A DNA stretch of 60,027 bases, the filler included, from Catajapyx aquilonaris (Eukaryota): NCBI GenBank assembly GCA_000934665.2. It is 2 parts of 2 records of this genome, joined end to end, with 100 filler letters (N's around TTAATTAATTAA, not from the genome) between each part and the next. Parts side by side here need not be neighbours in the genome. Positions count along the whole stretch, not along the records: positions 1 to 29,969 come from JYFJ02004709.1; 1 more part is not named here. One strand, given 5' to 3'. A program made the translations under genes and the position numbers. Each line of letters begins with the position of its first letter. The stretch's first letter is position 1. Under the pieces are notes generated by a model. The model was not told where the DNA came from, did no database searches, and saw only the letters and a list, made by a program, of their open reading frames with translations. This document shows positions 3,317 through 29,959 of this stretch, piece by piece.

Positions 3317-5751
3317 ATGTCGACGACTGTGTGGATAAAGGAAGAGGTGCTGGACGGAGAGGAGGAAGAGGATGGGAACGTTGCCGAGGAGGAGTCCTGG
3401 CAGATGCCCTTGAAGGAGGAAACTCCATGTTCCGATGATGAAGACTCCGCACTTAGAGAAGACACTCTTGGTGAGATCAAGCAGGAGGAGGAGGAGGCAT
3501 CCGAGGAGGAGGAGGAGATGCTGGTGACCATGTCCGGAGATGATGATGATGACGACCCTTTGGCTGTTAGTTCTGGAAGGATTAGTGGGGTAAGCCGTCT
3601 GCTGAAAATGCCACACCAAATCATCAATCCAAATCAAACGCTCAGGATAAGAAAAGTGCAGTCAATTTAAAATGGGCCGAATTTATTGTGGGACATGCAA
3701 TAAGCTTATTGGCAGGGATAAACTTTTAAGAGAAAATTATGTGCATGCGCACTTAGAGGGAGCAGGTGTCGCATCACATGATGGAAAAGGAACTAATGCA
3801 CTGAAAGCTCGGGCCAGTTAATAAAAACCAAGCTGTACAGGGCGGAAAACGAAACGGCGATCTGATGTCATCATTTTGTTCTCATGCAACAATAGTTTTT
3901 TTCTTGACACTGCTTACTCATATTGTTGTGTGATGATGTCAGATCGTTGTTTCGTTTTCCAGACTGTAAGTGGTGTAAAGGTTATGTTTTACGTTTTAAT
4001 AGACTATTGCCCTTGGTGAATTGTACATTTATTTCACTGAAGCACTAGGCCTTCACATGTAAGTGCTTGGGTTGTTACCTTGTTACTGGAACCACACATC
4101 TGAACCCCTTCAAACATTTCATTCCATACACTTTGGAGGTATGATGGGCATTGTGGGATGCTGTAAGGAGGCGAGCCTTGTCGCCAAGCGTTTCGCATGT
4201 GAATGTTGCGGAGAGGCAGTGAACTGTGACCTTGGTTAGTCGCTATTGTTTTGGGTTCTTCAGGGGATATTTTCAGGGTCTACATGGTATACATGGGCAG
4301 GGCAGGTATGTGTGGTTTATTGGCATTCTTCAACATAGCAACAGTGAAGGCGTTCATTTCCCGAGTAATGGGTGAATTATATCGCACTTCATGCTTTTAG
4401 TTCTACGTTGTGTCAGTTCCTTGGAGAGCATTTATTTAAGTGTTTCTGACATTGTCATAGTCTGTAACTTCTTGAGTCTTTATGTAATATGGGGTACTTT
4501 CAAAATGGCCAAATGAAGTGCAAAGCTTCAGACCATGCACGCTGCACAATTGAAACTGATGTACTCTAAATCTTTTTCCAGGTTGTTCAAGTCAGAACTG
4601 AAGATGATGTAGAAGAGAATAGGATCCAGGAAGAGGGAAACAGTGGAATACGTGGTGGAGAAAATCCATTTGAGTGCACCGTATGCCAGATAATATTTGG
4701 TACCCTGAATGATTTGAATGATCACATGATAACGTTTAGTGAAAATAATTGCTGTCACATGTGTCAGAAGAAATTTTCGGATATAAGTAATTTGAAAACT
4801 CACTTGCGAATTCATACAGGAGACAAACCATTTACATGTGAAGTGTGTCAGAAAAAATTTAGTTTTTCTAATCGTTTGAAATCTCACATGCGAATTCATA
4901 CAGGAGACAAACCATTTACTTGTGAGGTGTGCCAGAAAAAATTTGCAGATGCGAGTAATTTGAAAAAACACTTACAAATTCACACAGGATTAAAACCATA
5001 TGTATGTGAGGTGTGCCAGAAAGATTTTGCTGATGCAAGTAATTTGAGAACTCACATGCAAATTCATACAGGAGAAAAACCTTTCACTTGTGAGGTATGC
5101 CAAAGCAAATTTCGTGATTCATATCAGTTCAAATCTCACATGCGAATTCATACAGGAGAAAAACCGTTTACTTGTGAGGTGTGCCAGAAAAAATTCCGTG
5201 ATTCAGTTCAGTTGAAATCTCACATGCGAATTCATTCTGGAGTAAAACCATTCACTTGTGAGGTCTGTCAGAAAAGTTTTTGTGGTGCAAATCGTTTGAA
5301 AACTCACATGCAAATCCATACAGGAGATAGGCCATTTATTTGCGAGGTGTGCCTGAAAAAATTTCGTGATGCAACACAGTTGAGAAATCACTCGCGAATT
5401 CATACGGGAGAAAAACCATATATTTGTGAGGTGTGCCAGAAAGAATTTAGTGGTTCATATAATTTGAAAATTCACATGCGAATTCATACAGGAGAGAAGC
5501 CTTATGTTTGTGAGTTATGCCAGAAAAAGTTTCGTGGATCAACCCAGTTGAAAACTCATTTGCGAGTTCATACAGGAGAGAAGCCATTTGTTTGTGAGTT
5601 ATGCCAGAAAACCTTTTGTGTTGCAAGTAACTTGAAAGCTCACATGCGAATTCATACGGGAGAGAGACCATTTGTTTGTGAGGTTTGCCAGAAAGGATTT
5701 CGTTATGCAAGCCATATGAAAACTCATATGAAAATTCATACACGAGAGTAA
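3317..5751 (+). CDS. C2H2 zinc-finger gene U1 (~480 aa; acidic N-terminal module, 1 degenerate + 12 fingers)
   Basis: Exons 3317-3589 (TTGCAG|GACCATG ... ATTAGTGGG|GTAAG) and 4582-5751 (TTCCAG|GTT). Phase 0, open frame. Confidence 0.88.
3838..3966. mobile_element. Small TA-flanked MITE in U1 intron
   Basis: TA|CAGGGCGGAAAACGAAACGGCGATCTGATGTCATCA vs TGATGATGTCAGATCGTTGTTTCGTTTTCCAGACTG|TA; imperfect ~35-bp TIR. Confidence 0.65.
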
Positions 5752-6848
5752 CCATGTCGTTTTGACATACGTGTGATTGAAGTCATTTGAAAACTCATAT
5801 GTGAATTCATACAGGAGATACAACTAATTGTGAACTTTGCCAAAATGAATTTAGTATGGCATGTGGTGTGAAATGTCATCAGAATGCACACCACATGCCT
5901 GCCATATTTGCAAGGAAGAGTTTCGTCTCTCACAGACTCCATACGTTCGAATACGCATTATTAAAAAGACACCAAATTGAGAAGTAATTATGCTGTAAAT
6001 GTAAAGTATGCTAGGAGTATATGAAGTTAAAACTTATTTCCAATCTCACATGCAAATTAATTGAAAACTCACATTGCAGCTCTCTGCATAAATACCAGCC
6101 CATGAACATGAATGGTTGCCTAGAGAGCAGGATGCGTGATACTGATTATTGTGCAAGAGGTGGCAATTTTTTCCAGGTCCCTGTTATGTGTTGTAACCAT
6201 AATCATGTTCACATCCCGCACTCTACATGTTGCGCTCAGTACACGTGATGTAGTATCCTGCAACTGTTGTCTTGTACTGACGAAGAGTGGATAATTTGCA
6301 AAACTTTCATATACGTAGGAATGCGTGTTTAAAAAATGACGATCCAATTTTTAAAAATACTTACGCTCCAGGAGTAGAATTTAGTTCATGCTTAGAGCAT
6401 GTTTGAATTTTATTGTAGGACAAAATCATCTACGTATTTTTGAACATCACCCGGTGAGCTTGGTTGATCAATTGATGACCTTCTAATGAGGGGCATCCTG
6501 ATTTATAGACAAGTGTAGTGTTAAGATATTTGAGATCGAAAGTCTCAATTTTTCATGAGGTTTGTCCAGTTCTGAATTTTCATATTAAATAGGCATCATC
6601 ACAATCAATAATTTCTTGATAATTGTCATATGCGATGCACATTGTGAAGCTGCTATTTGAAGGAAAAAAATGTGATTGTACAGGACAAGGAAGAAAATAA
6701 AAATGATGAATTGGAGGATTATATGATCACATGTTCTGTGCCAGATTGTACAGGTTTGATTCTCCATTGGGAAGCCTGAACATGCGGAATCATTTTAGGC
6801 GAATGATGATCAGTGTTGTTAGCCGTTATCGCAGAGTAGCAGCTCCAA

Positions 6849-6955
6849 ATAGCAGTGACTCCTGAGCTGCTCCTGAGAAGCAATAGCGCGTAATGGCGTC
6901 CTTCATTCTGGCGGTGGTAGGAATGCACCCGGCCAGAGAATCCAAGATGGCCGAC
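6849..6955 (+). promoter_or_regulatory. Conserved ZNF promoter module, U2
   Basis: TAGCAGTGAC...TAGCGCGTAA...GGTGGTAGGAATGCACCC...CAAGATGGCCGAC. Confidence 0.6.
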
Positions 6956-7082
6956 AAATGATGAATGTAGGTCGTGAAGGAAGGAGACTCCTTCATCATC
7001 CGGTGCGTGGCACTCATCCAGGCCTGTCGCTTCTTGTTTCATTTTATCATTCATGACCTCCACTCTTCGTGTTTGCAGGGCC

Positions 7083-10000
7083 ATGTCTTTGATCCTGAGG
7101 ATCAAGAAGGAGGAGGAAGTGAAGGAAGAGGAAGAAGATGAGGAGGACATCACAGTGGATGAGGACAGTTGGAGGCTAGGGTTGCAGGAGGAGACCCCTT
7201 CTTGCTCTGATGGGGGCTCCTCTCTCATAGAAGACACTCTCCTTGAGATCAAGAAGGAGGAAGTGAAGGAGGAGGAGGAAGAGGAAGAGATGGTGATGAC
7301 AATGTCTGGGATGGGTGAAGATGAAGATGACCCTTTAGCAGGAGGTTCTGGAATGATTAGTGGGGTATGTAATCTGCCGAATTTGCAATATTAAATTTTA
7401 TACAAAAACTCTCTCCAAATCGTCGCGCTAGGTGAGCGGACTGTTTTGTTGATAGATGGCGCGCAGTTGTTGCCAGCAAGTTATGGTGTATCGCATGGTG
7501 TAAGCAAACAACAACGCGATACGCCATAACCTGACAACCACAGAACCGCTGTTGACGACTATCCGCGTGTCTCCCAGGAGGCGGACTTTAGTTGCTAGAT
7601 GGCTTTGTTGTTGCAAGGTTATGGCACATCGCACCTTTGTTTACTATCCGAGCGCCATCTATCAACAAAACAGTCTGCTCGCCTAGCGCCTCTCGCGTGA
7701 CGCGTCTGAGCGCACCTGTTCCTCGTCTATGAACTCCCTCTAGATGGCTTTTCCGGACAAGGGTTCCTATGTCAAAAATACTTGCCTTGGTCCCCTCTAT
7801 TACCCGTGCAAGTCTTTACAGACTTACAGAAAACACCCTGTATAATACCCGAACTCTTTGGCCAGCACAGAGACATTTGACCCACAACAATATATGAGAT
7901 GGTAAACAACAACTGACGTTGCGAGGATATGACGTCATGAACAAATGAGGAAATGACGGGAAAAATAAGGGGCGAAAAATCATAACTTCTATCCCGTAGC
8001 AGGTGGAACTGGGAGGTTTTGAACACAGATTCGTACTGTCCTATTACACATTCAGCCCTTTGACGAAGAAACAGAATTCCGAACAGTTATTATTGAACCA
8101 AAAAAAACAACGTATTTTTAATGGTTTAAATTTTTTTGCGGATTACTGAAGAGGAATTAAGTAAAAGTGTAAATGGTAGGAAATCATTTCGCGGCAGTGG
8201 AGATATGTGTTCAAAATTTGGAAACTCTACCTGTACTATCAGTCCAACAAGAATTGTCGCAGCAGCAGCGCACGAACTGCAATCTACGAGCACAGGTATA
8301 CGAGAGACTGTAGTTCGTGCGCTGCCGCTTGTGACAATTCTTGTTGGACACCAGGTACCAGAATCTGAGCTAGGGCGAATTGAAAAAAAAACCTAACAAG
8401 AACAAGCTGGAAAAATTCATAGTTGAAATTGCATATTCGGTCTCACATAGAGGCTACCCAAAGGGGCTACCACCCCTAAAATAAGGATACATACGTAATA
8501 TGTATCCTTGACTATGATAACATCAATAGGGAAATAAACGACATTTGTATAGTTGCAATCGAATTGGTAAGACTTTGGTAAGACGTGTTTCTTTGCACTG
8601 CAGATCAGTGCTCAGCTGCACACAATGAGGGACAACTACATATGTGTGGACCCCTCCCGCATTCACATGAACACCGCTGAGAGGATCCAAAAAGCACCCT
8701 ACATCGGGTATATCAGAGAGGCCATGTTGCGAGATCCCACTCACAGCACCCTTCCATCACTAATCTCATATGCAGTCGCTTGACTGGCAGCCACGGGGGA
8801 GTATGCGGCTAAGGTGGAAAGAAAGGTGAACCAGTCCCTGTCAAACGGGATAGCAGTGAATAAAGTCCACACTACAAAATTTGGACTTTTCAAGATCGGC
8901 CCTTGCCCTTCACACTAAAACAAAAAACTGGTAGGCTAGCTACTTCTAATGTTTCTAATGTTGCATTCGGGAGTTTTCAAGAGAACATTTTCAACTGCAA
9001 ATGAAACTGCCCCACTTATTTTTAAGATGTGCTGTACGCCAGATAAAACCGTATAGGGCAAAACATACTATTCCACAAAAATGCTACTGTATGGACTGGT
9101 TTTGCACCATATTGAGGTCAAGTGCTTATTTTTCTCCCCATTTTCCTCTCTTTCTCACCAGCAAAAAAATGTCAACTATGTCCTTGATCTGATAATACAG
9201 GGTGTAAATGAATTCAGGGGACAGACTTCTAGGGGTAATAGAGGGGACCAAGACAAGAGTATTTTTGACATAGGAACCCGTGTCCGGAAACGTCATCTAT
9301 AGGGGGTGCAATGCTGCAACGCAGAGGTTTCACTGCATATGCGTCGATTCATCTAACCGAGGTGTTGTTGGCCTCCTCAGAGGTAATGAAAAAACTTTTG
9401 CTTATTGTTTTCAAATTCTACGCATAGACCTACTACACAATGTCCCATTCGCATATGGATGAAGTTTATGAAGTGTATTTCATTCTTGCATACCCTACCT
9501 CTACCACCACAACTCACCCGGGCAACACAGGGATACTTGCAAGTTATTGTGACTTTTCAATCGTAGTGCAGTGTCATTCCGTCCCAACGACCGCAGCGAA
9601 CTGTGGGGAATAGAACATGCAACGGGGGCTAATATTGTCCAGGAGTGAAAGCTCCGAGAAGCATACTGCATATTATGCAGGTGCACTTTTTGAGTCATCA
9701 ATAATATGGGGTACTTTCCATATGACAAAGCTGGCAGAAATCATTGCACCATCCACCATGCACACTGCATAATTGAAATTGATGGACTGCTATTATTTAT
9801 TTATTTTTTAGGTCATGCAAGCGAGAACTGAAGACGGTGTCGAAGAGAATGGGATCCAAGAGGAAAGGAACAGGGGAATATGTTATGGAAAAAATCAATT
9901 TGAGTGCAGAATATGCCAAATGATATTTGGTAGCATTAATGATTTGAATATTCACATGAAAACTCATGAAAATAATTGCTGCCATGTGTGCCAGAAGAAA

Positions 10001-10213
10001 TTTCCGTATCTAAGTAATTTGAAAACTCACCTGCGAATTCATACGGGAGAGAAGCCATACAGTTGTGAGATGTGCCATAAAAAATTTGGTCAGCTAAGTA
10101 ATTTGAAATGTCACATGCGAATTCATACAGTAGAGAGACCATTTACTTGTGAAGTATGCCAGAAGAAATTTTGTGACTCAAGGCAGTTGAAAAAGCACAT
10201 GCGAATTCATTAG
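7083..10213 (+). CDS. C2H2 zinc-finger gene U2, truncated (~227 aa, 4 fingers) or pseudogene
   Basis: Exons 7083-7364 and 9812-10213, phase 0. Premature TAG right after finger 4, followed by disrupted fingers (10214-10400). Confidence 0.7.
7425..7840. mobile_element. Truncated inverted copy of the 386-939 MITE
   Basis: Internal part is the reverse complement of ~590-790; intact end ...AAAACACCCTG|TA. Confidence 0.85.
8242..8349. repeat. Imperfect inverted repeat (MITE-like)
   Basis: GTCCAACAAGAATTGTC...GCAGCGCACGAACTGCA vs TGTAGTTCGTGCGCTGC...GACAATTCTTGTTGGAC. Confidence 0.7.
9198..9307. mobile_element. Left TIR fragment of the CAGGGTG MITE, subfamily B
   Basis: TA|CAGGGTGTAAATGAATTC...GGGGTAATAGAGGGGACCAAGACAAG...GGAACCCGTGTCCGGAAACG. 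Confidence 0.8.
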
Positions 10214-10562
10214 TGAGAGACACCATTTATTTGTGAGGTTTGACGGAAAGAATTTTGTGCGTCAAGGGATTTGAAAACTCATGTTCGAATGCACACATGA
10301 GAGTAACCATTTCATTTTGACATATGGAGGAGAAATTTTGTGATTGAAGTTATTTGAAGAGTCACAAGTGAATTATTCATACAGGGGAGGTAAATCATAG
10401 TTGCGAATTTTCACCCACAAACTTACGTACAACATTGTTACACTGGGCCTGCTGTCACCCCCTCGAAAAGTATGTAGCATCTCACGTTGCAACTTTTGAC
10501 ATAAATATAACATCCCGTGGATGTTTATGGTTGCCTAGAGAGCGAGAAAGGAGCGTGATACA

Positions 10563-10990
10563 GCAGAGAAGCCTTACATCTGTGAGGCCTGCCTGGAAAA
10601 GTTTCGTTATTCAAGCTCTTTAAAAACTCATATGCGAATTCACACAGGAGAGAAACCACATTTGTGTAAGGTGTGCCAGAAAAAATTTACGCAATCAAGT
10701 AAGTTGAAAATTCACATGCGAATTCACACAGGAGAGAAGCCATTTATTTGTGAGATATGCCAGAAAAACTTTCGCGTTGCAAGTAATTTGAAATCTCACA
10801 TGCGAATTCATACGGAAGAGAAACCATTTCAGTGTGAGATTTGCCAGAAAGAATATCGTTATGCAAATCATTTGAAAATTCACATGCGAATTCATACAGA
10901 AGAAAAACCACGTTTGTGAGGTTTTCCAGAGACCATTTCCTTATGCAAATCGCTTGAAAACTCATATCAAGATTCACACAGGACAGTAAC
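10563..10990 (+). pseudogene. Orphan zinc-finger array fragment U2b (4 in-frame fingers, then frameshift)
   Basis: Frame 10563-10919 encodes AEKPYICEACLEKF... and 3 more fingers. No promoter module or acidic exon of its own. Confidence 0.7.
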
Positions 10991-11653
10991 ATTTTGACAT
11001 GCAGGAAAAAGTTCGTGATTCTAGTTATTTGAATATTCGCATATGAAAGAAATTCTTATACGAATAGATAGGATTTAGTTCTTGCTTAGACATAAGCTTG
11101 TTTGGATTTTGTAAGACAAATCATGTATTTATATTTTTCCAACACACTGACATAACACTAATAAATATTTGAAGTAACATCTCAGTAGTTCATTTACCTG
11201 AATTATTGTAAAATGGGAATGGATTGTTTATGACCATCTACTCGGAACAACATCTTGAACACTAGACAACTGTGGTAAGGACGGGATATTTGAGATGGAA
11301 AGTCACAATATTTTCATGAGGTTTAGCCCAATTCAGAAGTTACTTTCACAGATCGGCAACATTACGCTGACTTTAATCACTGGAATTCAGACACCATCAT
11401 CTTCACCCAAGCCACATCTTAAGGTCCAAGACAATAAAGGATTGTCAATAAGGGAATCCTACACTCCGTGAAACTTCCTCCACGAGGATTGGGCATGAGC
11501 AGTCATCACAGTGGATTATTGCACATGAAGTGCTGTTGCTGTTTGGCATGTGCTCGTGAGTGGCAGTGGCCAAGAGAGAAGAAGCCCAAATGCGGGATCA
11601 TTTTGGGCAGCTAAAGAACTAGGAGCGGAGTTGTCGTTAGCCGCTATCGCAAA

Positions 11654-11768
11654 GTAGCAGTGACTCTCTGAGACGGGGGAGTAGCGCATAAGGACGTCCC
11701 TCGCTCTGGCGGTGGTAGGAATGCACCCCCGGGATCGCCTCCAAAGGGGAAGGGAAAAAGATGGCCGG
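11654..11768 (+). promoter_or_regulatory. Conserved ZNF promoter module, U3
   Basis: GTAGCAGTGAC...TAGCGCATAAG...GGTGGTAGGAATGCACCC...AAGATGGCCGG. Confidence 0.6.
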
Positions 11769-11962
11769 CCGGGATCGCATGTCCCGAAGGAGGATCCTGT
11801 GACTTGGTTGGACTCGTTTCCAGTCTTTCCACGTCCCCTTCTTGGCGTTCAGGTCGACTGGAACTGCTGGAACACTCCCTGGAACACTCCTTAGAAGAGG
11901 TACTGTGGCCACCCTTATTAAAGAGACTGTGATGGAGAGCCACTGCTTGTGTTTGCAGGGCC

Positions 11963-13442
11963 ATGTCTTTGATCCTGAGGATAAAGAGGGAGGAAGAGGC
12001 GGAGGAGGACATCACAGTGGACGAGGAGAGCTGGAGGCTGCCCTTATTGAAGGAGGAGACCCCTTCTTCCTTTGATGGTGGCTCGACCACTCTAATGGAA
12101 GACACTCTCCGCGAGGAAGCAGAGGTGGAGGAGGAAGAAATGGTGGTGGCCATGCCTACGGTGGTTGAAGATGAGGACGACCCTTTGGCAGTTGGATCAG
12201 GAAGGATTAGTGGGGTATGTGAGCTACTGAAATTGCAACTGAAGATGTTTTGGGCATACTTAATCAATCACTTGGTTCCCCTTGAAACGTCTTGGACACT
12301 AACTGTTTGACCTAGCTTTGACCTTGATACAATAGATATAATTATTTTCTCATTTCAACATTCATTTTAGTTGCACTGACATTTTGTGATTGCCCAGTCT
12401 GATAATCTGTCAGACAACTTCTTGAGCATTTATAATATAAGGTGCTTTCCAAATGACCAAAGCACGTAGAGTTACACTACGCACACAGCAAATAGAAATT
12501 GATTTACTGTAAATCTTTTTCCAGGTTATTCAAGTGAAAACTGATGACGGAGTTGAAGAGAAAGGGATCCAAGAGGAAAAGAACAGGGGAATATGTGATG
12601 GAAGAATTCTATTTGAGTGCAGAATATGCAATATTAAATTTGGTACCCGGGTTGATTTGCAAATTCACATGATACCTCATAAAGAAGGGAAATACTGCCA
12701 CATTTGCCAGAAAACACTTTCGACTCCGAGTTGTTTGAAAAAGCACATGCGAATTCATACAGGAGACAAACCATTCACTTGTGAGCTGTGCCGGAAAAGA
12801 TTTTCTGATGCAAGTAATATGAAAAAACACTTGAAAACCCATTCCGGAGAAAAACCATCTATTTGTGAGGTGTGCCAGCGAAGGTTCTCTGATAAATTTA
12901 AGTTGAAAGCCCATATGCGAATTCACACAGGTGAGACACCATTTATTTGTGAGGTGTGCCAGGAAGAATTCCGTTATGCAATACAGTTGAAAACTCACGT
13001 GCGAATTCATACCGGAGAAAACCCCTACATTTGTGAGGTGTGCCAAAAAAAATTCGATCGTCCATATAATTTGAAAAAGCACATGCAAATTCATACGGGG
13101 GAGAAGCCTTACGTTTGTGAGGTCTGCCAGGAAAATTTTCGTCATTCACGTGATTTGAAAGCTCACCTGCGAGTTCATACAGGAGAAAGACCACATATTT
13201 GTGAAGTGTGCCATAAAGAATTCCGTGATGCATATCGTTTGAAAACTCACATGCGAGTTCATACAGGGGAGATGCCATATTTTTGTGAGATATGCCAGAA
13301 AAACTTTCGTGTTTCAGGTAATTTGAAAACTCACATGCGCATTCATACAGGAGAAAAACCATATGTTTGTGAGGTATGCCAGAAAGAATTTCGTCATTCA
13401 CATCATTTGAACAGTCATATGCAAATTCATACAGGGGAGTAA
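11963..13442 (+). CDS. C2H2 zinc-finger gene U3 (~389 aa, 10 fingers)
   Basis: Exons 11963-12214 and 12525-13442; canonical phase-0 splice sites, open frame. Confidence 0.88.
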
Positions 13443-13779
13443 CCATATTATTTTGACAGGAAAAACTTTGTGGTGCTCCCATCAACACGCAATACCTTGG
13501 GAACGAGGCAATAATTGAACAATGTCAACAATGATTAATTGTTGTTGTTTACATCACCATGGAAGCAGGCTGTGCAGAGAACAAGTTGCCCTAAAAATAA
13601 TCAATTCATTCTGGTGGTAGGTTTCTCTTGAGCTGGACTGACCACCACACCTAGTTCCAGCAGCCAGAACCCGTGCTGCTTCTTCATGCCTCGAGGCAAG
13701 TGCATTTGTAACAATGTGACACTCTCAGGAGGAATATGTACTCGGTAGTGTAACCTCACAAAATATTGTAATTGCACAG

Positions 13780-18785: not shown

Positions 18786-18958
18786 GAGAGTCCTTTGAAT
18801 TGAACTCATCTGGACCAGATTCATCACTTTAGAGGAAGGAAGGTGAGTGGTCCTTGTCTGATTCGATTTGCCCACACCACAGAGAAAATGCTCCTCCTCT
18901 TCAGCCGCCATGCGCTGGACATGATTGCATGACCTCCACTCTTTGTGTTTGCAGGACC

Positions 18959-20529
18959 ATGGCGCAGGCAGTGTGGATTAAGACGGAAGAGACGGAGGAA
19001 GGGGAAGATGGAACAATCACAGTGGAGGAGACCTGGCAGTTGCCTTTGAAGGAGGAGACCCCTTCCTGCTTCGATGAGGACTCTACGCTCATACAAGACA
19101 CCCTTCGTGACATCAAGAAGGAGGAAGAAGCGGAGGAGGAGGCAGAGATGACCCTGTCTGGGGTGGTTGAAGATGAAGATGACCCTTTGGCAGTTGGTTC
19201 TGGAAGGATTAGTCAGGTATGTAATGTGCATGATGATGATGATGATGATTATTATTATTATGAAGTGACCACCTCCGCCCGGGACGCTCATCTCGAAGGA
19301 ATACACGGAACGGCGCATGTCAAGTATATGGGACATTCGCAGAATCAATTAGGAAACAGTACCTGCGGCTTGCCTACCCTTTGATTCGTTGTTTTGCTTC
19401 TGGGTTTGAAGTCGGGGAAGTGACCAGGGACCCTGGAATTAATTCCTCAAGTTGGACCAGAATGCAGGTGGAATCATTGTATCCCTCAGTTCGAATCGTA
19501 AGTTGCCATGTTACAAACAAACATTCCAGCTTAAGAAAGCGTTAAGCAACAATGAAAATCTGGAAAGTTTATCGTTAATCTGCATATAGCGATGCGGCGG
19601 GGTTGGGTGTGCTGGGAAGGAGGTGGCAAATTTAAATGCTGCGATGGTTGCTGCAGAACGACATGAGGTCACACCAGCCGTGTTTTCTGAGCATGTGCAG
19701 TAGTATGTCTGCAGAGTGAGTCGTGAACATGATTGGAGGGGAGAGTAGGGTGGAGGCGGGCGGATCGTCATGTCGCATGTAGTTAGTTGGTTTAACGGAC
19801 TCTGTGGAGGTAAATTTCGCGCTTGACAAAGCCACAATAACGTTCGTTGGCCTGCGGTGCACAATGAGGACTGCATTGTTGGCGGATACAGAAACCCACA
19901 ATAAGTTCCCAGCTTCGCCACAACAACGGACAGTACTGTGCCTGGCAGGTCCACAACAACGGACAGTACTGTGCCTGGCAGGTCCACAACAACGGACAGT
20001 ACTGTTGCGGTTACAAAAAGTCATACAGCATCACCAAGACAAAGTGCTATTCCAAGCTATAATCACCTCAAAATCTGTACCGATCTGAAGAGGCTATTCG
20101 TAACCTAGCAACTTGCGATTCGAACTGAGAGATAACAATTAGGATGACAATGATCCCATCTGCATTCTGGTCCAACTTGAGGAATTAATTCCGGGGTCCC
20201 TGGTCACTTCCCGGACTTCAAACCCAGAAGCAAAACAACGAATCAAAGGGTAGGCAAGCCGCAGGTACTGTTTCCTAATTGATTCGGCGAATGTCCGTAT
20301 ACTTGACTTCAGCCCACGGAACTCCAACTAACACACGTCTATTCTTCTCTGAAACGTATATACACACAGCTGGCAGGACCCACACTCGGGACACAGCCAC
20401 GACAGACATCTGACCAGGACGACGTCTCACTCAGAACTCTCTATTCCAAACAAACCCCTGGACACCAAAATAACATAAATAGTTCAGCGTCCAGGCAACG
20501 ATCAACGATCCTGTTTCCAGGATGCTACA

Positions 20530-20597
<68 letters not shown>

Positions 20598-23222
20598 CAG
20601 CACCGGAGACTCATTTTTACACAGATTTTACATATTTTTATATGGTTTTTGTATATTTATATGTGTGTATTGTGCGTGTGTTTGTGTATCTGTATGTATT
20701 CATGTCATCCTTTTCATTATCATCCTATTCATTATATCCTCTGCGTGGCCTGACCAGTCACCAGAGGATTCATTATACTGGTCGTTCGAGATGGCCAGGT
20801 GGACTGTAAGGCCTACCTGGTCATCGCTGGTAACCCCATCTTGATGGGAATATGCCGTGAATGTATGTATGTATGTATTATTATTATTATTGTGTGAATA
20901 GTGAATGTCTATGACTAAGTAAGTGTGACACAGAAGTGCTACTAAAGAAACGCACGTTACTACCTTATTTAATCCTGGAACCGTGACGTGGGGTCTTTTA
21001 GGACCCCAAAGGAATTAAAGTGCATTAATAAAATGATAATTACAAGGAACATGTGCTATTTTTTAAAAGTATAAAAGGTGTTTATTGTAACTCTGCAAAG
21101 ACTTTCAGGGTAATAGAGGGGACCAAAACATAGTGCCTCTCGCGTGACGCGTCTGAGCGCACCCGTTCCTTGTCTATGAACCCCCTCTAGATGGCGTTTC
21201 CAGACATGGTTTCCTGTGTCAAATATGTTTGTCTTGGTCCCCTTTATTACCCCTACAAGTTTGTCGATTGAATTCATTTACACCCTGTATAAACATTAAT
21301 AAAAATAAAAATAGTGAGGTCCTAAAAGACCCCACGGCGTGGTTAATGTAACTTTCAGGCACGTCACGGTTCCAGTGTCTAAAATATCAGCAATGCAGAT
21401 TGTTATATAAAACATAAACATCATTATATTGGTGTGGATTTTCTGTCGATTACTTTAAGGCAACTCAGAAGGCGGGTCACGAATAAATGCAGAGGATGTA
21501 CAGAGGGTAATTGAGGGGTGTGGGGGAAAAACATGATAACTGACAAAGGTGTAATATTTCAGGAGAGCGAATTGAAGTTTGCATTTCGTTAACAAATCAT
21601 AGGGAATGCTGGTTTTAATCTAGTTCGTGTGGCCGTCCTGTGCATGATACATGAACTTGGAGTATACCAAACTGTTTGGCATGTCTTATACGTAGTTGCT
21701 AGGTGATTAGGTCAAAAATGACGAAAATGTCAGTTATCATGTTTTTCCCCCACACCCCCCAATTTATAGCCTACCAAAGATGTTTGAGATAACTGCAAGT
21801 GCGGAAAAAACCAGCTGACTGCCCAGGTTGTTGCATGTTGTATTGCTTTTACATGTACCTGATCCACAAACCTTACTAAATAAGGGCCTGCCCAGAGATG
21901 TATTAGTTTCTACCCTGATCAAGAGTCAAGAACTGAATCTGGCCACCACTTGTAAAATTGAAACAATCCATTTGCTGGAAATGCGATTCATACAGCTATT
22001 CTTACCCACTCGTTGGGCTTATACGTATAATTTTTGAGCTCCCGACCTTATGTGTGACATGTCCGAAACAAGTCTAGAGATTTCACACAATCCTAATTGC
22101 ATAAGAGAAATTGATTCACTGTAATTCACCTTCCAGGACATGCAAGTGACAACTGAAGATGCTGCAGAAGAGAATGGGATCCAGGAGGAAAGGAACGAGC
22201 GAATAAGTTGCGAAAGAAATCCATTTGATTGCGGAAAATGCCTGATCACATTTGGTACCCTGGATGATTTGAATGATCACATGATATCTCAGAGTGAGAA
22301 TAATTGCTGCCATGTTTGCCAGAAAAAATTCAAAAATTCAGGTCATTTGAAAAAGCACTTCAGAATTCACACAGGAGAGAGGCCATTTATTTGTGAGGTG
22401 TGCCAGGAAAAATTTCGTGATCCATACCATTTGAAGACTCACATGCGAATTCATACAGGAGAGAAACCATTCATATGTGAGCTGTGCCAGAAAACATATC
22501 GTGTTTCTAGTCATTTGAAAATTCACATGCGGAGTCATACTGGAGAAAAACCATTTCCTTGTGAGGTGTGCCAGAAGAATTTTGGGGACTCTGGTAATTT
22601 GAAGTCTCACATGCTAATTCATACAGGAGAGAAACCATACAGCTGTGAGGTATGCCAGAAAAAATTTCGCCTTTCTGGTCATATGAAAACTCATATGCAA
22701 ATTCATACAGGAGAAAAACCATTGATTTGTGAGGTGTGCCAGAAAAGGTTTCGTGATTCAAGTGGTTTGAATATTCACATGCGAATTCACACAGGAGAAA
22801 AACCATTTGCTTGTGAGGTGTGCCAGAAAAAATTCCGCGATTCGCACAATTTGAATACTCACATACGAATTCATACAGGTGAGAAACTATTAATTTGTGA
22901 GGTATGCCAGAAAAAATTCAGTGAATCAGCGAAGTTGAAAAACCACATGCGAATTCATACAGGAGAGAGACCATTTAGTTGTGAGGTCTGCCAGAAAGAT
23001 TTCTGTGATCCAAGTAATTTAAAAGCTCACATGCGAATTCATACAGGAGAGAGACCATTTAGTTGTGAGGTCTGCCAGAAAAATTTCAGTGATCCAAGAG
23101 TTTTAAAAGCTCACGTGCGAATTCATTCAGGAGAAAAACCATTTGTTTGTGATGTATGTCAAAAAGAATATTGTTATTCCAGTCATTTGAAAACTCACAT
23201 GCGAATTCACACAAGCGAGTAA
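18959..23222 (+). CDS. C2H2 zinc-finger gene U5 (~447 aa, 1 degenerate + 11 fingers), recombinant
   Basis: Exons 18959-19216 and 22137-23222; phase 0, open frame. Confidence 0.87.
19261..20529. mobile_element. Possible solo LTR (TG...CA), split by the 19312-20314 element
   Basis: ATTA|TGAAGTGACC...GATGCTACA|ATTA. The TSD lies in a microsatellite, so it is weak evidence. Absent from the U7 intron. Confidence 0.4.
19312..20314. mobile_element. Non-autonomous DNA transposon, ~200-bp TIRs, 8-bp TSD (Merlin/Mutator-like)
   Basis: TSD CACGGAAC (19304-19311, 20315-20322); GGC...GCC termini. 19312-19515 pairs with ~20098-20314. Internal 33-bp tandem repeat at ~19918-20004. Confidence 0.85.
20530..20597. 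repeat. (TTA)n microsatellite
   Basis: Directly visible. Confidence 0.95.
20973..21378. mobile_element. TIR element, possibly piggyBac-like, hosting a CAGGGTG MITE
   Basis: CTGGAACCGTGACGTG / CACGTCACGGTTCCAG plus subterminal CGTGGGGTCTTTTAGGACC / GGTCCTAAAAGACCCCACG. TTAA on the left, CTAA on the right. Confidence 0.55.
21074..21287. mobile_element. Internally deleted CAGGGTG MITE with mixed subfamily ends
   Basis: Left end resembles 386; right end resembles 53-217 and 9198; TA on both sides. Confidence 0.8.
21513..21760. mobile_element. MITE with 33-bp TIRs and AATT TSD (Sola-like)
   Basis: GAGGGGTGTGGGGGAAAAACATGATAACTGACA, 32/33 match to the right end. Empty site GGGTAATTTATAGCC at ~28580-28594 in U7. 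Confidence 0.88.
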
Positions 23223-23982
23223 CCATTTCATTGCTTGATGCATGCCAGATAATATTTTGCATATCAATTAATTTGAAACTCATCGGAATTCACACACTTG
23301 AGAAACCAATTATTTTCGCCTCACCATAAATTATTTTTTTTAGTAATCCATGTGATTAGAAAACTCATATGCGAAATCTTAAAGACATGCACGTCATGAT
23401 TGTGAAGTAATTTAGCAAGGCAAAGAGAGTGGAATGTCATATAAGTATGCACACAGCAAAAAAACCATACAGTTGCCTTATTTGCAATAAAAGGATTGGC
23501 CTGTTACGGAGTCTGAAAACTCATGTGAGACTGCGCAAGTGAAAATTGATGTATGTGAAAAAGTTTATCAACTGACTGAGATGATTTCTATAATCACTTT
23601 GACAACCCACATTTTTGCAGCTCTTGGCATAACTAACGTCCCATCAACATGGATGGTTGTCTGGTCAGCCTGATATGAATGTGATGTTGATTACTGTGCA
23701 ACAGGTGTCCATATTCCAAATGGAGTATGTTCTAAAGTCCCATAATTGCCGACTTAATTTGCCCATGTCCGGCTTTGAATCATACAAAAAGGGAAACATT
23801 GCCTCAGTGTGAAACAATAGTGAAAGTGCTGCATATCATGGTGGTATATACTGTAGTGTAGTTTCAAACCCATGAAAAATGCACGCATAATTAACCTGTA
23901 CACAATAAGGTTGGATGTTTTAGATCACAGTTTTTAATTTAATAAACAATAATATATCAGGATTGCACATGTGATTCATTTA

Positions 23983-24068
<86 letters not shown>

Positions 24069-24396
24069 GGTATAGTGCCATACCGCATCTGAGGTTACGT
24101 ACGGACCTTTATTTGTCAAGATGGTACATTTAGTTTTGACAACGTAGAATGGCCCTTGGGCCAAGGGCAGGGTGACTGGGAGGGGATGTGCAGTGTGCAA
24201 GTGCAATGTCGTAGCTATGATCATTTTGTGAGCTCCCCTGGGTGGTTCGTCTGTCGGAAATCCCACCCTAGACGAAGCAGGAGATGACCCCGGACTCCGC
24301 ACGAGATGAAAGGGGGGAAAGCCCGGGCTTGGGATCGAACCCGGGACCCTTCCATCCGTGGGTGCGTGCGTTACCGCAGCGCCACTCCGCCTTCCC
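23983..24396 (-). mobile_element. tRNA-derived SINE with long (TTA)n tail
   Basis: 17-bp TSD CACATGTGATTCATTTA (23966-23982, 24397-24413). Minus strand has A box TGGCGCTGCGG and B box GGTTCGATCCC. Empty site at 18453-18469. Confidence 0.92.
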
Positions 24397-24861
24397 CACA
24401 TGTGATTCATTTACACTCCACATAACAATGCTATATTGTGTTGTACTCTGTAGATTAGTCGCAAAATTTTTAATTTTAGGAATGCATATTTGGATAAAGG
24501 GATTTGTTATTGTACAGGACGTGGAAGAAGGAAAAAAAAAAAATGTATTGCGATGTAATGAGGTATTGCGTATAATGATTTGTCAGTTTTGATAATAAAT
24601 TTTCGCACAACCTAAACCAAAAATATTTGCTGGAATTCGAAGTCTTCATTACCCAAATCGCATGTCGTTGGTCCCAAACGAGGTTTTCAACTAATTACCG
24701 TGTACCCACCTCCATTTGCCTAGTTATGAAGCTCCAAATATTACTTAAAGGATTTATGCGCACTAGCAAGTGGGGAAAAAAACCAGTGTTTCACTTTGTG
24801 ACTGGTTTTAATGCAATGTAGTGAATGATTAATGCAGATAATTATGAGCTGTTATTCACCA

Positions 24862-24979
24862 GCAGCGGCGACTTGTGAAGAAGGAATAGCGGTTACTCAC
24901 ACGCGTCTCTGAGTGGCGGTGACGGGAATGCACCCCAAGGAGTGTGAGAGAAAAAAATCAGTGAAACTAAGATGGCATC
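24862..24979 (+). promoter_or_regulatory. Conserved ZNF promoter module, U6
   Basis: Near-identical to 18659-18785. Confidence 0.6.
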
Positions 24980-25167
24980 TGAGAGTCCTTTGAATTGAAC
25001 TCATCTGGACCAGCTTCATCACTACAGAGGAAGGAGGGTGAGTGGTGATGAACTTGTCTGATTCATGCCGTCCGTTGCCCACACCCCTGAGAAAATGCTC
25101 CTCCTCTTCAGCCGCCATCCACTGGATACATGATTACATGACCTCCACTCTTTGTGTTTGCAGGACC

Positions 25168-27410
25168 ATGTCGCAGGCAGTGTGGATTAAGACGGAAGAA
25201 GGAGAGGAGGAAGATGGAGCGATCACGGCCTGTTCGTTGCCCTTGAAGGTGGAGACCCTGTATTCTGATGACAGCTGCAGTGACGACTCTACGGAAGAGA
25301 CGACGACGCTTCGGGAGGTCAAGGAGGAGCTGGAAGAGGAGGAGGTGCCCATGCCAAGGGTGGTTGAAGAAGAAGATGATGACCCTTTAGCAGGAGGAGG
25401 ATCTGCAAAGATTAGCGGGGTATGTAATCTGCTGAAATTGTCATTCTACACTAAAATGACACCAAAAATCATCAATCCAAACACAAATGCTAGTATCCAT
25501 CGATAGTAGTAACAGTGATTAAATTTTTTGGGACATGTTGTAGCACTGTTTGGACTCCGTCCAGTTATTTGGGGCAACCCTGAAGAAGACCATAATGTCT
25601 ATTTCCTAGAAAAGAAAAGAACTGGAAGTGTTGTCAATATCTGACTGGTAAGCGCCCATTATATCTGGCTAGGCCATACAGCATATTAATGTGCTGCTAT
25701 TTCTTGCAAGTGTGCAACAAACTCTGTTTTACGTACATCATGCATGTCCTTGCCAGTCATCAGTTTGGATATCGACAGCACCTCCAGTTCTGTACAGCTT
25801 TTTTGCAAAGTTGAGCCATGTTTACATGTGAGCGATTTGACAAGTGAAGTAACCAATATTGTTTGAGGTGAAATAAGTAACAATAGATTTTTAGATGTTT
25901 ATTTCACGTCAGATAAGGAATTAAGTGCTTTGTGTCTATCTGTGTGTAATAAGATAATAACCAAAAAGATGTAAAAAAGAAGAAAGAAAAAAACAGGGTC
26001 TTGCGGATAATGTATGGCGCTGTGTGAAGCTACCCAGACAACTTACATCCAATTTTCTCGTGGAGGCTACAATATGGCTTTGGATACACTAAAGTTGCAT
26101 GAAATGGCTTCTCAGGAAATTTTGGTGGGTTTCCAAAATATTCACATGAAAAAATGTGAAATAATTTTTTTCCTTTCAGGCCTCAATCCAACATTGTTAC
26201 TTTCATTGCAATATTTCATGTAATTAGGCTACACTGAAATCTGTGATTGTACAATAATTATGTAGGTCTTATGGGACATCCCCTTGAACCGTTATAATAA
26301 GGTTTGACCTTCCAATAATAAGGCTTATGCCTTCCAAATGACCAAAGCAGGTCGAAAGGATCACACACTGTATATTAGAAATTGATGTGCTGTAAATCTT
26401 TTTTCCAGGATGTGCAAATGAGACCTGAAGATGGACTAGAAGAGAAAGAGATCCAGGAGGAAGTCAACAGTGGAATGTCTGATGGAGATAATCCACTTAA
26501 TTGTGGAAAATGCCAGATAACATTTGGTACCTTGGATGATTTGAATGATCACATAGTAACTCATAGTGAAAAAAATTGCTGTCACATTTGCCAGAAGAAA
26601 TTAAGCGATTCTCGTAGTTTGAAAGCCCATATCCGTATTCACACGGGAGAGAAACCATTTGTCTGTGAAATATGCCAAAGAAATTTTCGTGATGCAAGTA
26701 ATTTGAAAAAACACATGCAATTTCATACAGGACAACTACCATTTACTTGTGAGGTCTGTCAGAAAAAATTTCGCGATTCAAGTCGCTTGAAAACTCACGT
26801 GAAAATTCATACAGGAGAGAGACCATTTATTTGTCAATTGTGCCAGAAAAATTTCCGTCACTCAAGTGATTTGAAAATTCACATGCGAATTCATACAGAA
26901 GAGAAATCATTTATTTGTGACGTCTGTCAGAAAAAATTTCGTGATGCAAGTCGCTTGAGATCTCACATGCAAATTCACACAGGAGAAAAAATAATTATTT
27001 GTGAGGTCTGCGAGAAAGCATTTCGTGATTCACATAATTTGAAAGCTCACATGCGAATTCATACAGGAGAGAGACCATGTGCTTGTGAAGTATGCGAGAA
27101 ATCATTTCGCGATTCAACCCAGTTGAAGTATCACATGCGACTTCATACAGGAGAGCTGCCATATGTTTGTGAGGTGTGCCAGAAGAAGTTTCGGGATTCA
27201 ACTCAGTTGAAAACTCATATGCGAGTTCATACGGGAGACAAACCATATAGTTGTGACATATGCCAGAAGAAATTTTCTGCTCCAAGTAATTTGAGAACTC
27301 ACATGCGAACCCACACGGGAGAGAGACCATTTACTTGTGAGGTGTGCCAGAAAAAGTTTCGTTATTCCAGTCATTTGAAAACACACACAAAAATTCATAC
27401 AAGAGAGTAA
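25168..27410 (+). CDS. C2H2 zinc-finger gene U6 (~417 aa, 11 fingers)
   Basis: Exons 25168-25419 and 26409-27410; phase 0, open frame. Confidence 0.88.
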
Positions 27411-27915
27411 CCCCTTTCATTGTCACATGCGCCTGAAAATAAAATGGGTGGTGCACGTAATAATTTAACATTCACATGTTCATTCATGCACATGAGAACC
27501 AAATTTTTTAGTTGTAGGATTAATGTAATTTGAAAAGTGGTATGCGGAATCTTATGAGAGGGAAGTTGTTGATTGGTAGTGTACAGTATGCCAGAAAAAA
27601 TTGCTATGATTCAACTAATAAGTTGATATGTCCCATACGAATCCATCCAGATGTATGGGATTGCTCGGACAGCGACGCACCGAGAGAGGCCCAATAAAGG
27701 AAAACCCACGTACTAACTTGGAATCCGTGTGTTAATTCCTAAGGAGTGTACCTGACTCTCTCCACTTCCCCATGTTGTGTGAGCCAGGTAATTTAACAAG
27801 GTGGCTACATGGGCCACTTCACTAGCATGCCTCCCTCACATTTTTGAAGTAGAGAAAGTAGCTGTTCAGGAGTTCTTTAAATAGCGGTGATTGCAGGAGT
27901 AGCAGTTCTGCACAA

Positions 27916-28054
27916 GTAGCGGCGATTGCTGACTGCTTGGTAGCGCATAAGCCCGTCCTTACACTTTCGTGTGGCGGTAGGAACGCACCCTCGTCCGCAT
28001 TAAAAAAGAAAAAAAAAAGAGAATAAAAAGGGAAGCGAATAAAAGATGGCCGAC
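27916..28054 (+). promoter_or_regulatory. Conserved ZNF promoter module, U7
   Basis: GTAGCGGCGA...TAGCGCATAAGCCCGTCC...GGCGGTAGGAACGCACCC...AAGATGGCCGAC. Confidence 0.65.
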
Positions 28055-28256
28055 TGGTGTTCGGTCGGGGTCTGATGAGATCCTCTTGGGCAGCCTCTTG
28101 GGAGACAGGTGACTAGGGGAGTCTCACGCTCCATTAGTGTATTGCCTGACCTAGATCCAAATGCAATGGGAAGGTTCCTCCTCTGCAACCGGGATGATTG
28201 GGGATTACTATCCTTGACGTTAATACATGACCTCCTCTCTTTGTGTTTGCAGGACC

Positions 28257-29959
28257 ATGGCGCAGGCAGTGTGGATCAAGACGGAAGCGACAGAGGAAGG
28301 GGAAGAGGAAGATGGAACAGTCACAGTGGAGGAGACCTGGCAGTTGCCTTTGAAGGAGGAGACCCCTTCTTGCTTTGACGAGGGCTCTACGCTCATACAA
28401 GACACCCTTCGTGACATCAAGAAGGAGGAGGAAGCGGAGGAGGAGGAGGAGATGACCCTGTCTGGGGTGGTTGAAGATGAAGATGACCCTTTAGGAGTTA
28501 GTTCTGGAAGTATTTGTCAGGTATGTAATCTGCATTATGATGATGGATGGTTCGTGAATAAATGCAGAGGATGTGCAGAGGGTAATTTATAGCCTAGCAA
28601 AGATGTTTGAGATAACTGGAAGTGCCGAAGAAAAAAAACAGCTGACCGCCCAGGTTGTGGCCTGTTGTATTGCTTTTATATGTACCTGATCCACAAACCT
28701 TACTAAATAAGGGCCTGCCCAGAGATGTATTAGTTTCTACCCTGATCAGGAGTCAAGAACTGAATCTGGCCACCACTTGTAAAACTGAAACAATCCATTT
28801 GCTGGAAATACCATTCATACAGCTATTCTTATCCACTCGTTGGGCTCATAAGTATAATTTTTGAGCTCCCGACCTTATGTGTAACATGTCCAAAGCAAGT
28901 CTAGAGATTTCACACAATACCAATTGCATAAGAGAAATTGATTCACTGTAATTCACCTTCCAGGACATGCAAGTGACAACTGAAGATGCTGCAGAAGAGA
29001 GAGGGATTCAGAAGGAAAGGAACGAGCGAATAAGTTGCGAAAGAAATCCATTTGATTGCGGAAAATGCCAGATCACATTTGGTACCCTGGATGATTTGAA
29101 TGATCACATGATATCTCAGAGTGAGAATAATTGCTGCCATGTTTGCCAGAAAAAATTCAATCATTCAGGTCATTTGAAAAAGCACTTCCGAATTCACACA
29201 GGAGAGAGGCCATTTATTTGTGAGGTGTGCCAGGAAAAATTTCGTGATCCATACCATTTGAAGACTCACATGCGAATTCATACAGGAGAGAAACCATTCA
29301 TATGTGAGCTGTGCCAGAAAACATTTCGTGTTTCTAGTCATTTGAAAATTCACATGCGGAGTCATACTGGAGATAGGCCATTTATTTGTGAGGTGTGCCA
29401 GAAAAAATTCTCTGATTCTAGTAGTTTGAAAACTCACATGCAAGTTCATTCAGGAGATAAGCCATATGTTTGCGAGGTGTGCCAGAAATCATTTCGTTTT
29501 GCTTGGCGTTTGACAACTCACATGCGAATTCATACAGGAGAAAAACCATTTACATGTGAGGTGTGCCAGAAATGTTTTTCTGATTCAGGTAACTTGAGAA
29601 AGCACATCCGAGTTCATAAAGAAGGTAAGTCATTTATTTGTGAGGTGTGCAATAAAACCTTTCGTGATGCATCTACTATGAAGGCTCACATGCGAATTCA
29701 TGCAGGAGACGAGCCATTTACCTGTGAGGTATGCCAGAAAACATTTTGTCATTCCGGTCATATGAAAACTCATATGCGAATTCACACAGGAGAAAAACCA
29801 TTTCCTTGTGAGGTGTGCCGGAAAACATTTCGGTACTCAAGTTCTTTGAAAATCCACATGCGAATCCATACAGGAGAGAAACCATTCATATGTGACGTGT
29901 GCCAGAAAACATTTCGTCACGCGAGTAATTTGACCAAACACATGCAATCTCATGCATGA
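28257..29959 (+). CDS. C2H2 zinc-finger gene U7 (~419 aa, 1 degenerate + 10 fingers)
   Basis: Exons 28257-28520 and 28964-29959. Stop TGA replaces the Gly of the linker (HA*EKP), 10 nt before the gap. Confidence 0.85.

Follow-up and report, generated by a model that had tools for sequence, protein, structure and literature searches.

What is the acidic exon that precedes each zinc-finger (ZNF) array at this locus, and what might it do? In large, fast-changing ZNF families, the array of DNA-reading fingers comes with a head specific to the lineage. Tetrapods have KRAB, insects ZAD and carp-like fish FiNZ. To our knowledge, KRAB is the only one of these heads whose mode of action is understood. 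The window (the whole stretch of DNA analyzed, 60,027 nucleotides with filler) contains seven tandem ZNF genes at 3317-29959, all on the + strand, each with an acidic coding exon, 81-94 codons long, here called the head. The cluster is best explained as a lineage-restricted C2H2 ZNF transcription-factor subfamily that has multiplied in tandem. We put at roughly 90% the probability that the head is a real, expressed and selected ZNF-associated module that matches no known domain.

We found all seven genes and their head exons where an earlier note on this DNA had placed them. In the genes g1 to g7, numbered along the window, the head exons lie at 3317-3589 (91 aa), 7083-7364 (94 aa), 11963-12214 (84 aa), 14859-15101 (81 aa), 18959-19216 (86 aa), 25168-25419 (84 aa) and 28257-28520 (88 aa). 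The finger exons lie at 4582-5751, 9812-10919, 12525-13442, 16296-17552, 22137-23222, 26409-27410 and 28964-29959, the last followed by an assembly gap from 29970. Head and finger exons are joined by a phase-0 GT..AG intron in 7/7 genes, as had been claimed. The head-exon donors are gtatgt in six genes and gtaagc in g1, where an acceptor (ttgcag) also lies 4 nt 5' of the ATG. The finger-exon acceptors, at the seven starts just given, are AG after a pyrimidine-rich tract. A profile HMM built from the seven head exons and run against the six-frame translation of the 60-kb window recovered just those seven (E 2e-45 to 7e-28).

The finger exons encode tandem C-x2-C-x12-H-x3-H fingers with TGEKP linkers, which places the proteins in the C2H2 class. 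By pattern search, g1 to g7 have 12, 4, 10, 13, 11, 11 and 10 canonical fingers, and g1, g4, g5 and g7 also have a degenerate "finger 0" without the final His. The range of 4-14 fingers per gene claimed before is thus correct, with 4-13 canonical fingers plus finger 0 in four genes. Against Pfam, the g1 finger exon matched zf-C2H2 (E 1.8e-70) and zf-H2C2_2 (E 5.4e-96). In g2, the first four fingers are followed by in-frame stops (TAG TGA, 10211-10216), then by decayed fingers and by four intact ones at 10539-10919.

Probable transcript evidence agrees with these exon boundaries. We used only the joints in contigs of one public run, X1, as evidence. GT..AG splice joints were present for g3 (12214|12525) and g4 (15101|16296), and a further joint in g4 (14797|14855; shorter side 128 letters) defines a 5'UTR exon at 14669-14797, the 5' limit of which is simply the start of the contig. 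This exon is followed by a 57-nt GT..AG intron that runs to 14855. A joint for g6 (25419|26409) is weak, with a shorter side of 23 letters. Because the library type of run X1 is not recorded, we treat these contigs as probable rather than proven cDNA. The order of head exon and finger exon in the earlier gene model therefore stands; the model had missed the additional 5'UTR exon and a promoter common to the copies.

The promoter block is found upstream of all seven genes and consists of GGAAYGCACCC followed by AAGATGGC, each motif occurring once upstream per gene. The blocks lie on the + strand at 2946-3002 (g1, with one mismatch in the GGAAYGCACCC-like motif), 6920-6951 (g2), 11718-11765 (g3), 14622-14682 (g4), 18722-18781 (g5), 24925-24976 (g6) and 27980-28050 (g7). 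GGAAYGCACCC has 8 matches in the window (1.41 expected), and AAGATGGC has 12 (2.0 expected). Separately, we considered and rejected a fusion of a head to the ING-like PHD exons at 13780-14412. These exons have a phase-1 acceptor and the head exon ends in phase 0, so direct splicing would run into a stop.

We found that the head matches no catalogued domain. None of the seven heads reached the Pfam cut-off (best E 0.11, 12.8 bits versus a cut-off of 27). KRAB (PF01352) gave no Pfam match at E<=10 in 7/7 heads, and BTB and SCAN likewise gave none in 7/7, in line with the earlier note. The statement that the module lacks a Cys pattern and is not a ZAD also held: the heads have 0-2 Cys each, without the two Cys pairs, and no Pfam match to ZAD. 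A PDB profile search gave one match at E 0.98 and matched no solved chain. The head HMM, searched against 1.84 billion representative proteins, found two at E<=1e-3, both of them non-ZNF proteins with repeat or acidic stretches whose scores were driven by composition. A word-indexed protein search with the head alignment found no match among longer proteins, and a search with the finger-exon leader (g4 residues 1-62) gave no candidate. An ESM Atlas query gave low recognition, with unnamed top clusters and a best score of 0.90, and is uninformative. Literature searches on FiNZ and on lineage-specific or crustacean C2H2 genes found no description of the acidic head.

The window also contains a cuticle gene (Chitin_bind_4, E 2e-16). 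As a control, its ORF was searched against the protein collection of the word-indexed searches and matched 19 proteins, some of them named proteins from mayfly and caridean shrimp (51-60% identity). The collection therefore holds arthropod proteomes, and evidently not that of this species. The arthropod setting claimed for the locus is borne out by this gene and its nearest named relatives.

The heads share a series of short motifs. I-K is invariant at residues 7-8; in the Mxxx(W/R)IKxE motif proposed earlier, the I-K stood but the spacing from Met to W/R is four residues, not three. W-x-x-P-L-K-E-E-T-P, the core of the motif (E/D)xW(Q/R)(L/M)PLKEETP said to be usual, is complete in 5/7 heads. 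The TLxE(I/V)KxE-type motif is present as T-L-x-[ED]-[IV]-K-x-E in 6/7. The reported DDPL..SGxIS terminus was recovered as D-D-P-L in 7/7 heads, followed by S-G-x-I-S/C. A stretch V-V-E-D-E-D-D was rejected as a SUMO-interacting motif (SIM) because it has two aliphatic residues only, and CtBP (PxDLS) and HP1 (PxVxL) motifs were rejected because D-P-L-A-V fits neither pattern.

An AF2 model of the head was mostly coil with one helix (g1 residues 44-72; mean pLDDT 61.5, pTM 0.27), and the low confidence makes the helix tentative. The head is thus predicted to be mostly disordered, with one amphipathic helix ending in the third candidate acceptor lysine, and is better regarded as an acidic, disordered stretch bearing short linear motifs than as a folded domain. 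The term "module" used in the earlier note fits in that the head is real, occupies an exon to itself and shows the splicing proposed there; no folded domain is predicted.

Some of these motifs are candidate SUMO sites. The seven heads contain 20 psi-K-x-E motifs, 2-4 per copy, at three conserved positions, and these account for 20 of the 26 head lysines. Shuffled heads had a mean of 1.43, and 0/5000 shuffles reached 20, which agrees with the earlier claim of SUMO consensus sites. The copies are paralogs, so the excess reflects approximately three inherited sites and not 20 independent events. Judged from the sequence pattern alone, 17 of the 20 sites resemble NDSM-type SUMO acceptors, with at least two acidic residues at x3-x6; an NDSM acceptor is psi-K-x-E followed by acidic residues, as described in the part of PMC5727262 consulted.

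We infer that the fingers read DNA and that the head is the effector part, which probably determines the protein's action once it is bound to DNA. Each gene would comprise three exons. The first, a short 5'UTR exon, would be driven by the common promoter block; the second encodes the acidic head and the third the whole finger array. The head's working elements would be the three positionally conserved NDSM-type motifs, the amphipathic helix and the terminal DDPL..SGxIS. We tentatively favor SUMO-dependent repression as the mechanism, by analogy with known systems. Ubc9 would SUMOylate the head directly, and the SUMO groups together with the helix would bring SUMO-binding co-repressor or heterochromatin machinery to finger-bound sites. 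The genes would then operate like KRAB- or FiNZ-ZNFs, with no kinship to them.

Comparison with known systems shows where the likeness lies. KRAB-ZNFs of tetrapods also have an effector module on one or more separate exons, a one-exon finger array, tandem clusters and array turnover. In contrast to KRAB, a folded module that binds TRIM28, the heads are predicted to be mostly disordered, and they have no KRAB match. ZAD-ZNFs of insects (PMC7913770) are likewise an arthropod lineage-specific C2H2 expansion with an N-terminal associated module, but ZAD is a Cys4 zinc-binding dimerization fold. According to the part of PMC10547256 consulted, FiNZ-ZNFs form large, tandem, lineage-restricted families in which one exon encodes a Glu-rich head and a single further exon, downstream, the finger array, the layout found here. 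By description rather than by sequence, they differ in that FiNZ is 28 aa long and restricted to cyprinids, whereas the head is 81-94 aa long and lies in an arthropod genome. A short motif query gave no match in the part of the PMC10547256 supplements searched. Knock-down of FiNZ-ZNFs derepresses transposable elements (Wells et al. 2023, PMC10547256, in the part consulted).

A mechanistic parallel comes from Drosophila. In Panoramix, a SUMOylated disordered region with an amphipathic motif recruits the heterochromatin factor Sov (10.1101/2021.07.27.453956, in the part consulted), and we propose by analogy that the disordered head, with its SUMO acceptor sites and short amphipathic helix, may act similarly. 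The two have no sequence relation, the helix is not LxxLL, and Panoramix is guided by piRNAs rather than by zinc fingers of its own. A more specific version, in which the head is an independent arthropod effector, the fingers dock on transposons or repeats, Ubc9 modifies the three lysines, and SUMO plus helix recruit SetDB1/Sov-type machinery, is unlikely as a whole. If it were true, the cluster would be a protein-guided counterpart to piRNA-Panoramix, spread genome-wide as a portable promoter-plus-head cassette. More generally, an unrelated head in another arthropod lineage, with SUMO-acceptor motifs and one short helix as its conserved features, would be a simple test case. It could reveal whether ZNF heads have arrived convergently at SUMO-dependent silencing, and whether control of repeats by zinc fingers exists in arthropods beyond the ZAD family. 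Its three lysines, its helix and its DDPL motif are directly mutable.

The main rival to SUMO-dependent repression is that the head is an acidic activation domain, in which acidic residues expose W, L, M and I to coactivators, with SUMO at the psi-K-x-E sites as a "synergy control" brake. A composition of this kind, acidic with many W, L, M and I residues, is also classic for activation domains and counts against a repressor. The heads have a net charge of -17 to -30 and 19-25 aromatic or aliphatic residues, including one conserved Trp, and the predicted disorder with a short amphipathic helix also fits. P-L-K-E-E-T-P, moreover, matches what we take to be the proline-flanked synergy-control pattern. 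We nevertheless consider activation a possible but rather doubtful role, as the nearest architectural analogues, KRAB and FiNZ, are likewise Glu-rich and are tied to repression (PMC10547256, in the part consulted).

It is less likely that the head has no effector role and serves as an acidic, disordered tail, shielding or tuning the basic fingers as an intramolecular DNA mimic or as an aid to solubility or search speed. Its extreme charge and predicted disorder are consistent with this, as is the fact that it is always joined to a long basic finger array, and acidic tails can tune DNA-binding domains. Charge alone, however, would not keep I-K, L-K-E-E-T-P, T-L..I-K-x-E and D-D-P-L in 5-7 of the 7 copies at dS of 0.5-1.3. 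Less likely again is a role in stability or localization, for instance with S-G-x-I-S behind the acidic run serving as a phospho-degron, or with SUMO-controlled turnover. The residues immediately after the invariant DDPL are well kept (S96 7/7, G97 6/7, I99 6/7, S/C100 7/7) and presumably resemble DSGxxS-type degrons, but the canonical first Asp is absent.

Sequence comparisons indicate that the head is under purifying selection and is not decaying neutrally. Head dN/dS was 0.20-0.58 in 21/21 pairs (NG86), with dS up to 1.27, although common GAA/GAG transitions in this Glu-rich exon may have raised dS artificially. The synonymous excess was significant in 5/5 pairs tested (p 2e-5 to 0.012). 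These ratios contradict neutral decay of the motifs across paralogs, which the earlier note had raised against its own proposal. Older paralogs still align only in the promoter block, in the head exon with at most about 25 nt of flank, and in the acceptor region with the finger leader; no alignment is left in their intron interiors. That the head is a (near-)neutral leader persisting only through the youth of the duplicates is highly improbable and largely refuted by these comparisons, even though DNA identity within the youngest pair, g5/g7, is no higher in the head exon (92%) than in the adjacent intron (95%).

The fingers vary most at helix positions -1, +2, +3 and +6 (2.5-2.8 bits, versus <=1.4 at most scaffold positions; n=71). 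Positive selection on the contact residues of recent fingers found no significant support: in nine recently matched finger pairs, the DNA-contact positions had not changed significantly more often than the scaffold (5/36 versus 17/212, p = 0.34). The g5 array is a mosaic, with fingers 1-3 resembling those of g7 and later ones resembling those of g4.

A stop-to-stop ORF scan (standard genetic code) gave seven acidic ORFs, all on the + strand within 3317-29959, each (7/7) followed 0.3-2.9 kb downstream by a long C2H2 finger ORF. These are the acidic heads and finger arrays of the seven tandem genes, numbered g1 to g7 in order. The head exons, all on the + strand, lie at 3317-3589 (g1, 91 residues), 7083-7364 (g2, 94 residues), 11963-12214 (g3, 84 residues), 14859-15101 (g4, 81 residues), 18959-19216 (g5, 86 residues), 25168-25419 (g6, 84 residues) and 28257-28520 (g7, 88 residues). 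In 7/7 genes the ATG lies 4 nt past a conserved acceptor (tgtgtttgcag, then GNCC ATG), and the 3' end of the head exon is a phase 0 GT donor. The finger exons start at 4582, 9812, 12525, 16296, 22137, 26409 and 28964 (g1 to g7), preceded by pyrimidine-rich AG acceptors. All begin with a common leader (V/D-x-Q-V-R-T-E-D-x-x-E-E-x-G-I-Q-E-E), after which comes an atypical "finger 0". Every finger in the window lies within 1718-29956 (+ strand). Runs of N were present at 29970-30013, 30026-30069 and 52037. The cluster may extend past the assembled sequence because the first of these runs begins 11 nt after the g7 stop.

Splicing of several of these genes was seen in X1, the only public sequencing run covering part of the stretch. 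X1 is kept as contigs, which were placed on 10900-29900 and are most simply cDNA; its library type is not recorded and it lacks a DNA control. GT..AG joints connected the head to the fingers in g3 (12214 to 12525, shorter side 116 letters) and g4 (15101 to 16296, shorter side 65 letters), and a 57-nt intron separated the g4 5'UTR exon from its head exon (14797 to 14855, shorter side 128 letters). The joint in g6 (25419 to 26409) was weak, with a shorter side of just 23 letters. The joints coincided to the base with the predicted junctions. Among the joints listed for the X1 contigs, none belonged to g1, g2, g5 or g7. One contig omitted 160 nt at 17976-18137, with ends GT..CC. This skip is not a canonical intron and may reflect a polymorphic deletion or a difference between assemblies.

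The seven genes share a promoter. When the 400 nt preceding each of the seven ATGs were aligned, two blocks were invariant or almost so. GGAAYGCACCC was found 163-371 nt upstream of the ATG in 7/7 genes (the g1 copy has one mismatch); the window contained 8 matches where 1.41 were expected. The second, the short motif AAGATGGC, lay 24-63 nt downstream of GGAAYGCACCC in all seven genes, with 12 matches in the window against 2.0 expected; five of these were outside the promoters, four in a repeat within the g4 intron and one at 39815. In X1, the contig of g4 started 6 nt upstream of the g4 AAGATGGC, contig ends being no proof of a transcription start. We take AAGATGGC to be similar to the YY1/Pho core sequence, a site found just downstream of some start sites. 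The four intronic copies were in inverted arrangement (15527-15721). X1 word depth was very high over 14704-15971 (~2000 in the bin 14704-15337), and this stretch is probably an abundant, expressed repeat.

The earlier note had described the head as an unrecognised module carried by these seven genes, and both points held. An HMM built from the seven head exons and run against all six frames of the window matched exactly those seven and no others. None of the seven heads reached any Pfam cut-off (best match E 0.11, 12.8 bits vs a cut-off of 27), and the head is not KRAB, ZAD, BTB or SCAN. A profile search with the head over all PDB chains gave a single match (E 0.98). Against 1.84 billion representative proteins the head profile gave two matches (E 7.5e-5 and 4e-4). 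Both are non-ZNF repeat proteins, one of 3399 aa and the other, collagen-like, of 918 aa, and these matches look composition-driven. Word-indexed protein searches gave zero matches. A control query from the same window, the ORF at 59182-59541, found mayfly and shrimp proteins (51-60% identity) in the same protein collection, so arthropod proteomes are present in it. The lack of head relatives is weak evidence for lineage restriction, as the collection is apparently without this species and its close kin. The product of the control exon (+) is a cuticle protein of the Rebers-Riddiford type (Chitin_bind_4, E 2e-16), which identifies the window as arthropod. KRAB-ZNF and FiNZ-ZNF genes have the same architecture as g1-g7. 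For FiNZ the likeness was judged on architecture; the FiNZ sequence is 28 aa, whereas the heads have 81-94 residues.

Conserved motifs in the heads were rich in potential SUMO acceptors. Motifs conserved among the heads are an initial M-x4-[WR]-I-K-x-E, W-x-x-P-L-K-E-E-T-P, T-L-x-x-D-T-L-x-[ED]-[IV]-K-x-E, and an acidic run followed by D-D-P-L-[AG]-x-x-S-G-x-I-[SC]. Net charge ranged from -17 to -30, with 0-2 Cys per head. AF2, run with the seven-row alignment, predicted a single helix (g1 residues 44-72, pLDDT about 75), on which the T-L-x-x-D-T-L motif lies, and coil elsewhere (mean pLDDT 61.5, pTM 0.27). We counted 20 psi-K-x-E motifs, the SUMO-acceptor consensus, compared to 1.43 in composition-preserving shuffles (0/5000 shuffles reached 20). 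Twenty of the 26 head lysines fall within such motifs, at three alignment positions (7/7, 5/7 and 6/7 copies), and g2 has two extra. In 17/20 sites at least two acidic residues occupy x3-x6. This is the NDSM pattern, which strengthens Ubc9 binding according to PMC5727262.

The head is not decaying neutrally. Nei-Gojobori dN/dS on a codon alignment of the seven head exons was 0.20-0.58 in 21/21 pairs (dS 0.17-1.27), with the caveat that GAA/GAG transitions at Glu codons may raise head dS. The excess of synonymous changes was significant in 5/5 pairs tested (p 2e-5 to 0.012). Blastn between gene loci aligned only the promoter block, the head exon with at most ~25 nt of flank, the finger leader and the final 40-115 nt of the intron. 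Intron interiors failed to align except where they share repeats or in g5/g7, a young pair. In that pair the exon was no better kept than the intron (head exon 92% vs intron 95% identity).

We take the fingers to be the DNA reader and the head the effector. The conserved lysines of this acidic, selected, disordered head are almost confined to NDSM-type acceptor motifs. Attachment of SUMO to a transcription factor usually results in repression. Drosophila has a disordered repressor region that is SUMOylated and, together with a short amphipathic motif, recruits Sov, a heterochromatin factor (10.1101/2021.07.27.453956). In addition, piRNA targets are linked to SetDB1 via a SUMO ligase (10.1101/533091). 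We favor the reading that the head would recruit a co-repressor in a SUMO-dependent manner (probability about 0.4) because its lysines are kept in NDSM motifs, because of the usual effect of SUMO, and because of the Sov and SetDB1 precedents. The main rival is that the head is an acidic activation domain on which SUMO acts as a brake, and we consider it somewhat unlikely. A tail that shields by charge alone would draw on the same net charge; set beside lysines held at three aligned positions, it is unlikely. More doubtful still is a stability or localization signal. A neutral leader is highly improbable in view of the dN/dS values. By analogy with KRAB and FiNZ (PMC10547256 and PMC11603059), g1-g7 may be linked to transposons.

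We found that the finger arrays varied in length and order. The genes contain 12, 4, 10, 13, 11, 11 and 10 canonical fingers (g1 to g7). Entropy over 71 fingers was highest at helix positions -1, +2, +3 and +6 (2.5-2.8 bits), and unit positions 6 and 27 were variable too. In g2 (10211-10919, +), finger 4 is followed by in-frame TAG TGA, two decayed fingers, an unrelated stretch of ~130 nt and, lastly, four fingers that remain open. The gene is either recently truncated or a pseudogene; despite the stops in its array, its head exon had a dN/dS of 0.20 against g3. Finger remnants downstream of the stop codons of g1 (5805-5984) and g4 (17586-17897), both on the + strand, suggest that arrays were shortened by stop gain. 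Judged by sequence, g5 (22137-23222) is a recombinant of g7-like (28964-29959) and g4-like (16296-17552) fingers: its fingers 1-3 share 93-100% identity with g7 fingers 1-3, and its fingers 4-7 and 10 share 89-98% identity with g4 fingers 4, 5, 6, 10 and 12, with g4 fingers 7-9 skipped. The gene copies are mosaics, since g5 upstream of its ATG matches g6 (88% over 426 nt) and its downstream part matches g7. Together, the g2 stops, the g1 and g4 remnants and the g5 mosaic indicate that array length and order change by recombination and stop gain. Contact positions showed no detectable excess of differences in nine recently matched finger pairs (5/36 vs 17/212 at other positions; Fisher p = 0.34).

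Between g3 and g4, 13780-14216 and 14296-14412 (+) resemble the final two exons of an ING-type gene. The first is basic and Ser-rich and ends with the N-terminal half of a PHD finger (Y-C-x-C-N-Q-V-S-Y-G...C-D-N). After a 79-nt GT..AG intron, the second encodes the other half of the PHD finger and a basic tail that terminates at a stop at 14410; Pfam PHD matched this second half weakly (E 9e-4, below cut-off). No ING exons were found upstream of 13780. In-frame splicing of a head to the first ING-like exon was ruled out by its phase 1 acceptor. A different five-finger ZNF exon at 1718-2416 (+) has a similar acceptor context and another leader, with no acidic head exon upstream of it within the window. 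A dispersed repeat whose copies give similar ORF-like translations (zero Pfam matches) was present at 344-640 (+), 7588-7815 (-), 9057-9302 (+) and 21056-21277 (-). Its copies occupy both introns and intergenic DNA of the cluster; those within introns of g2 and g5 share ~88% identity.
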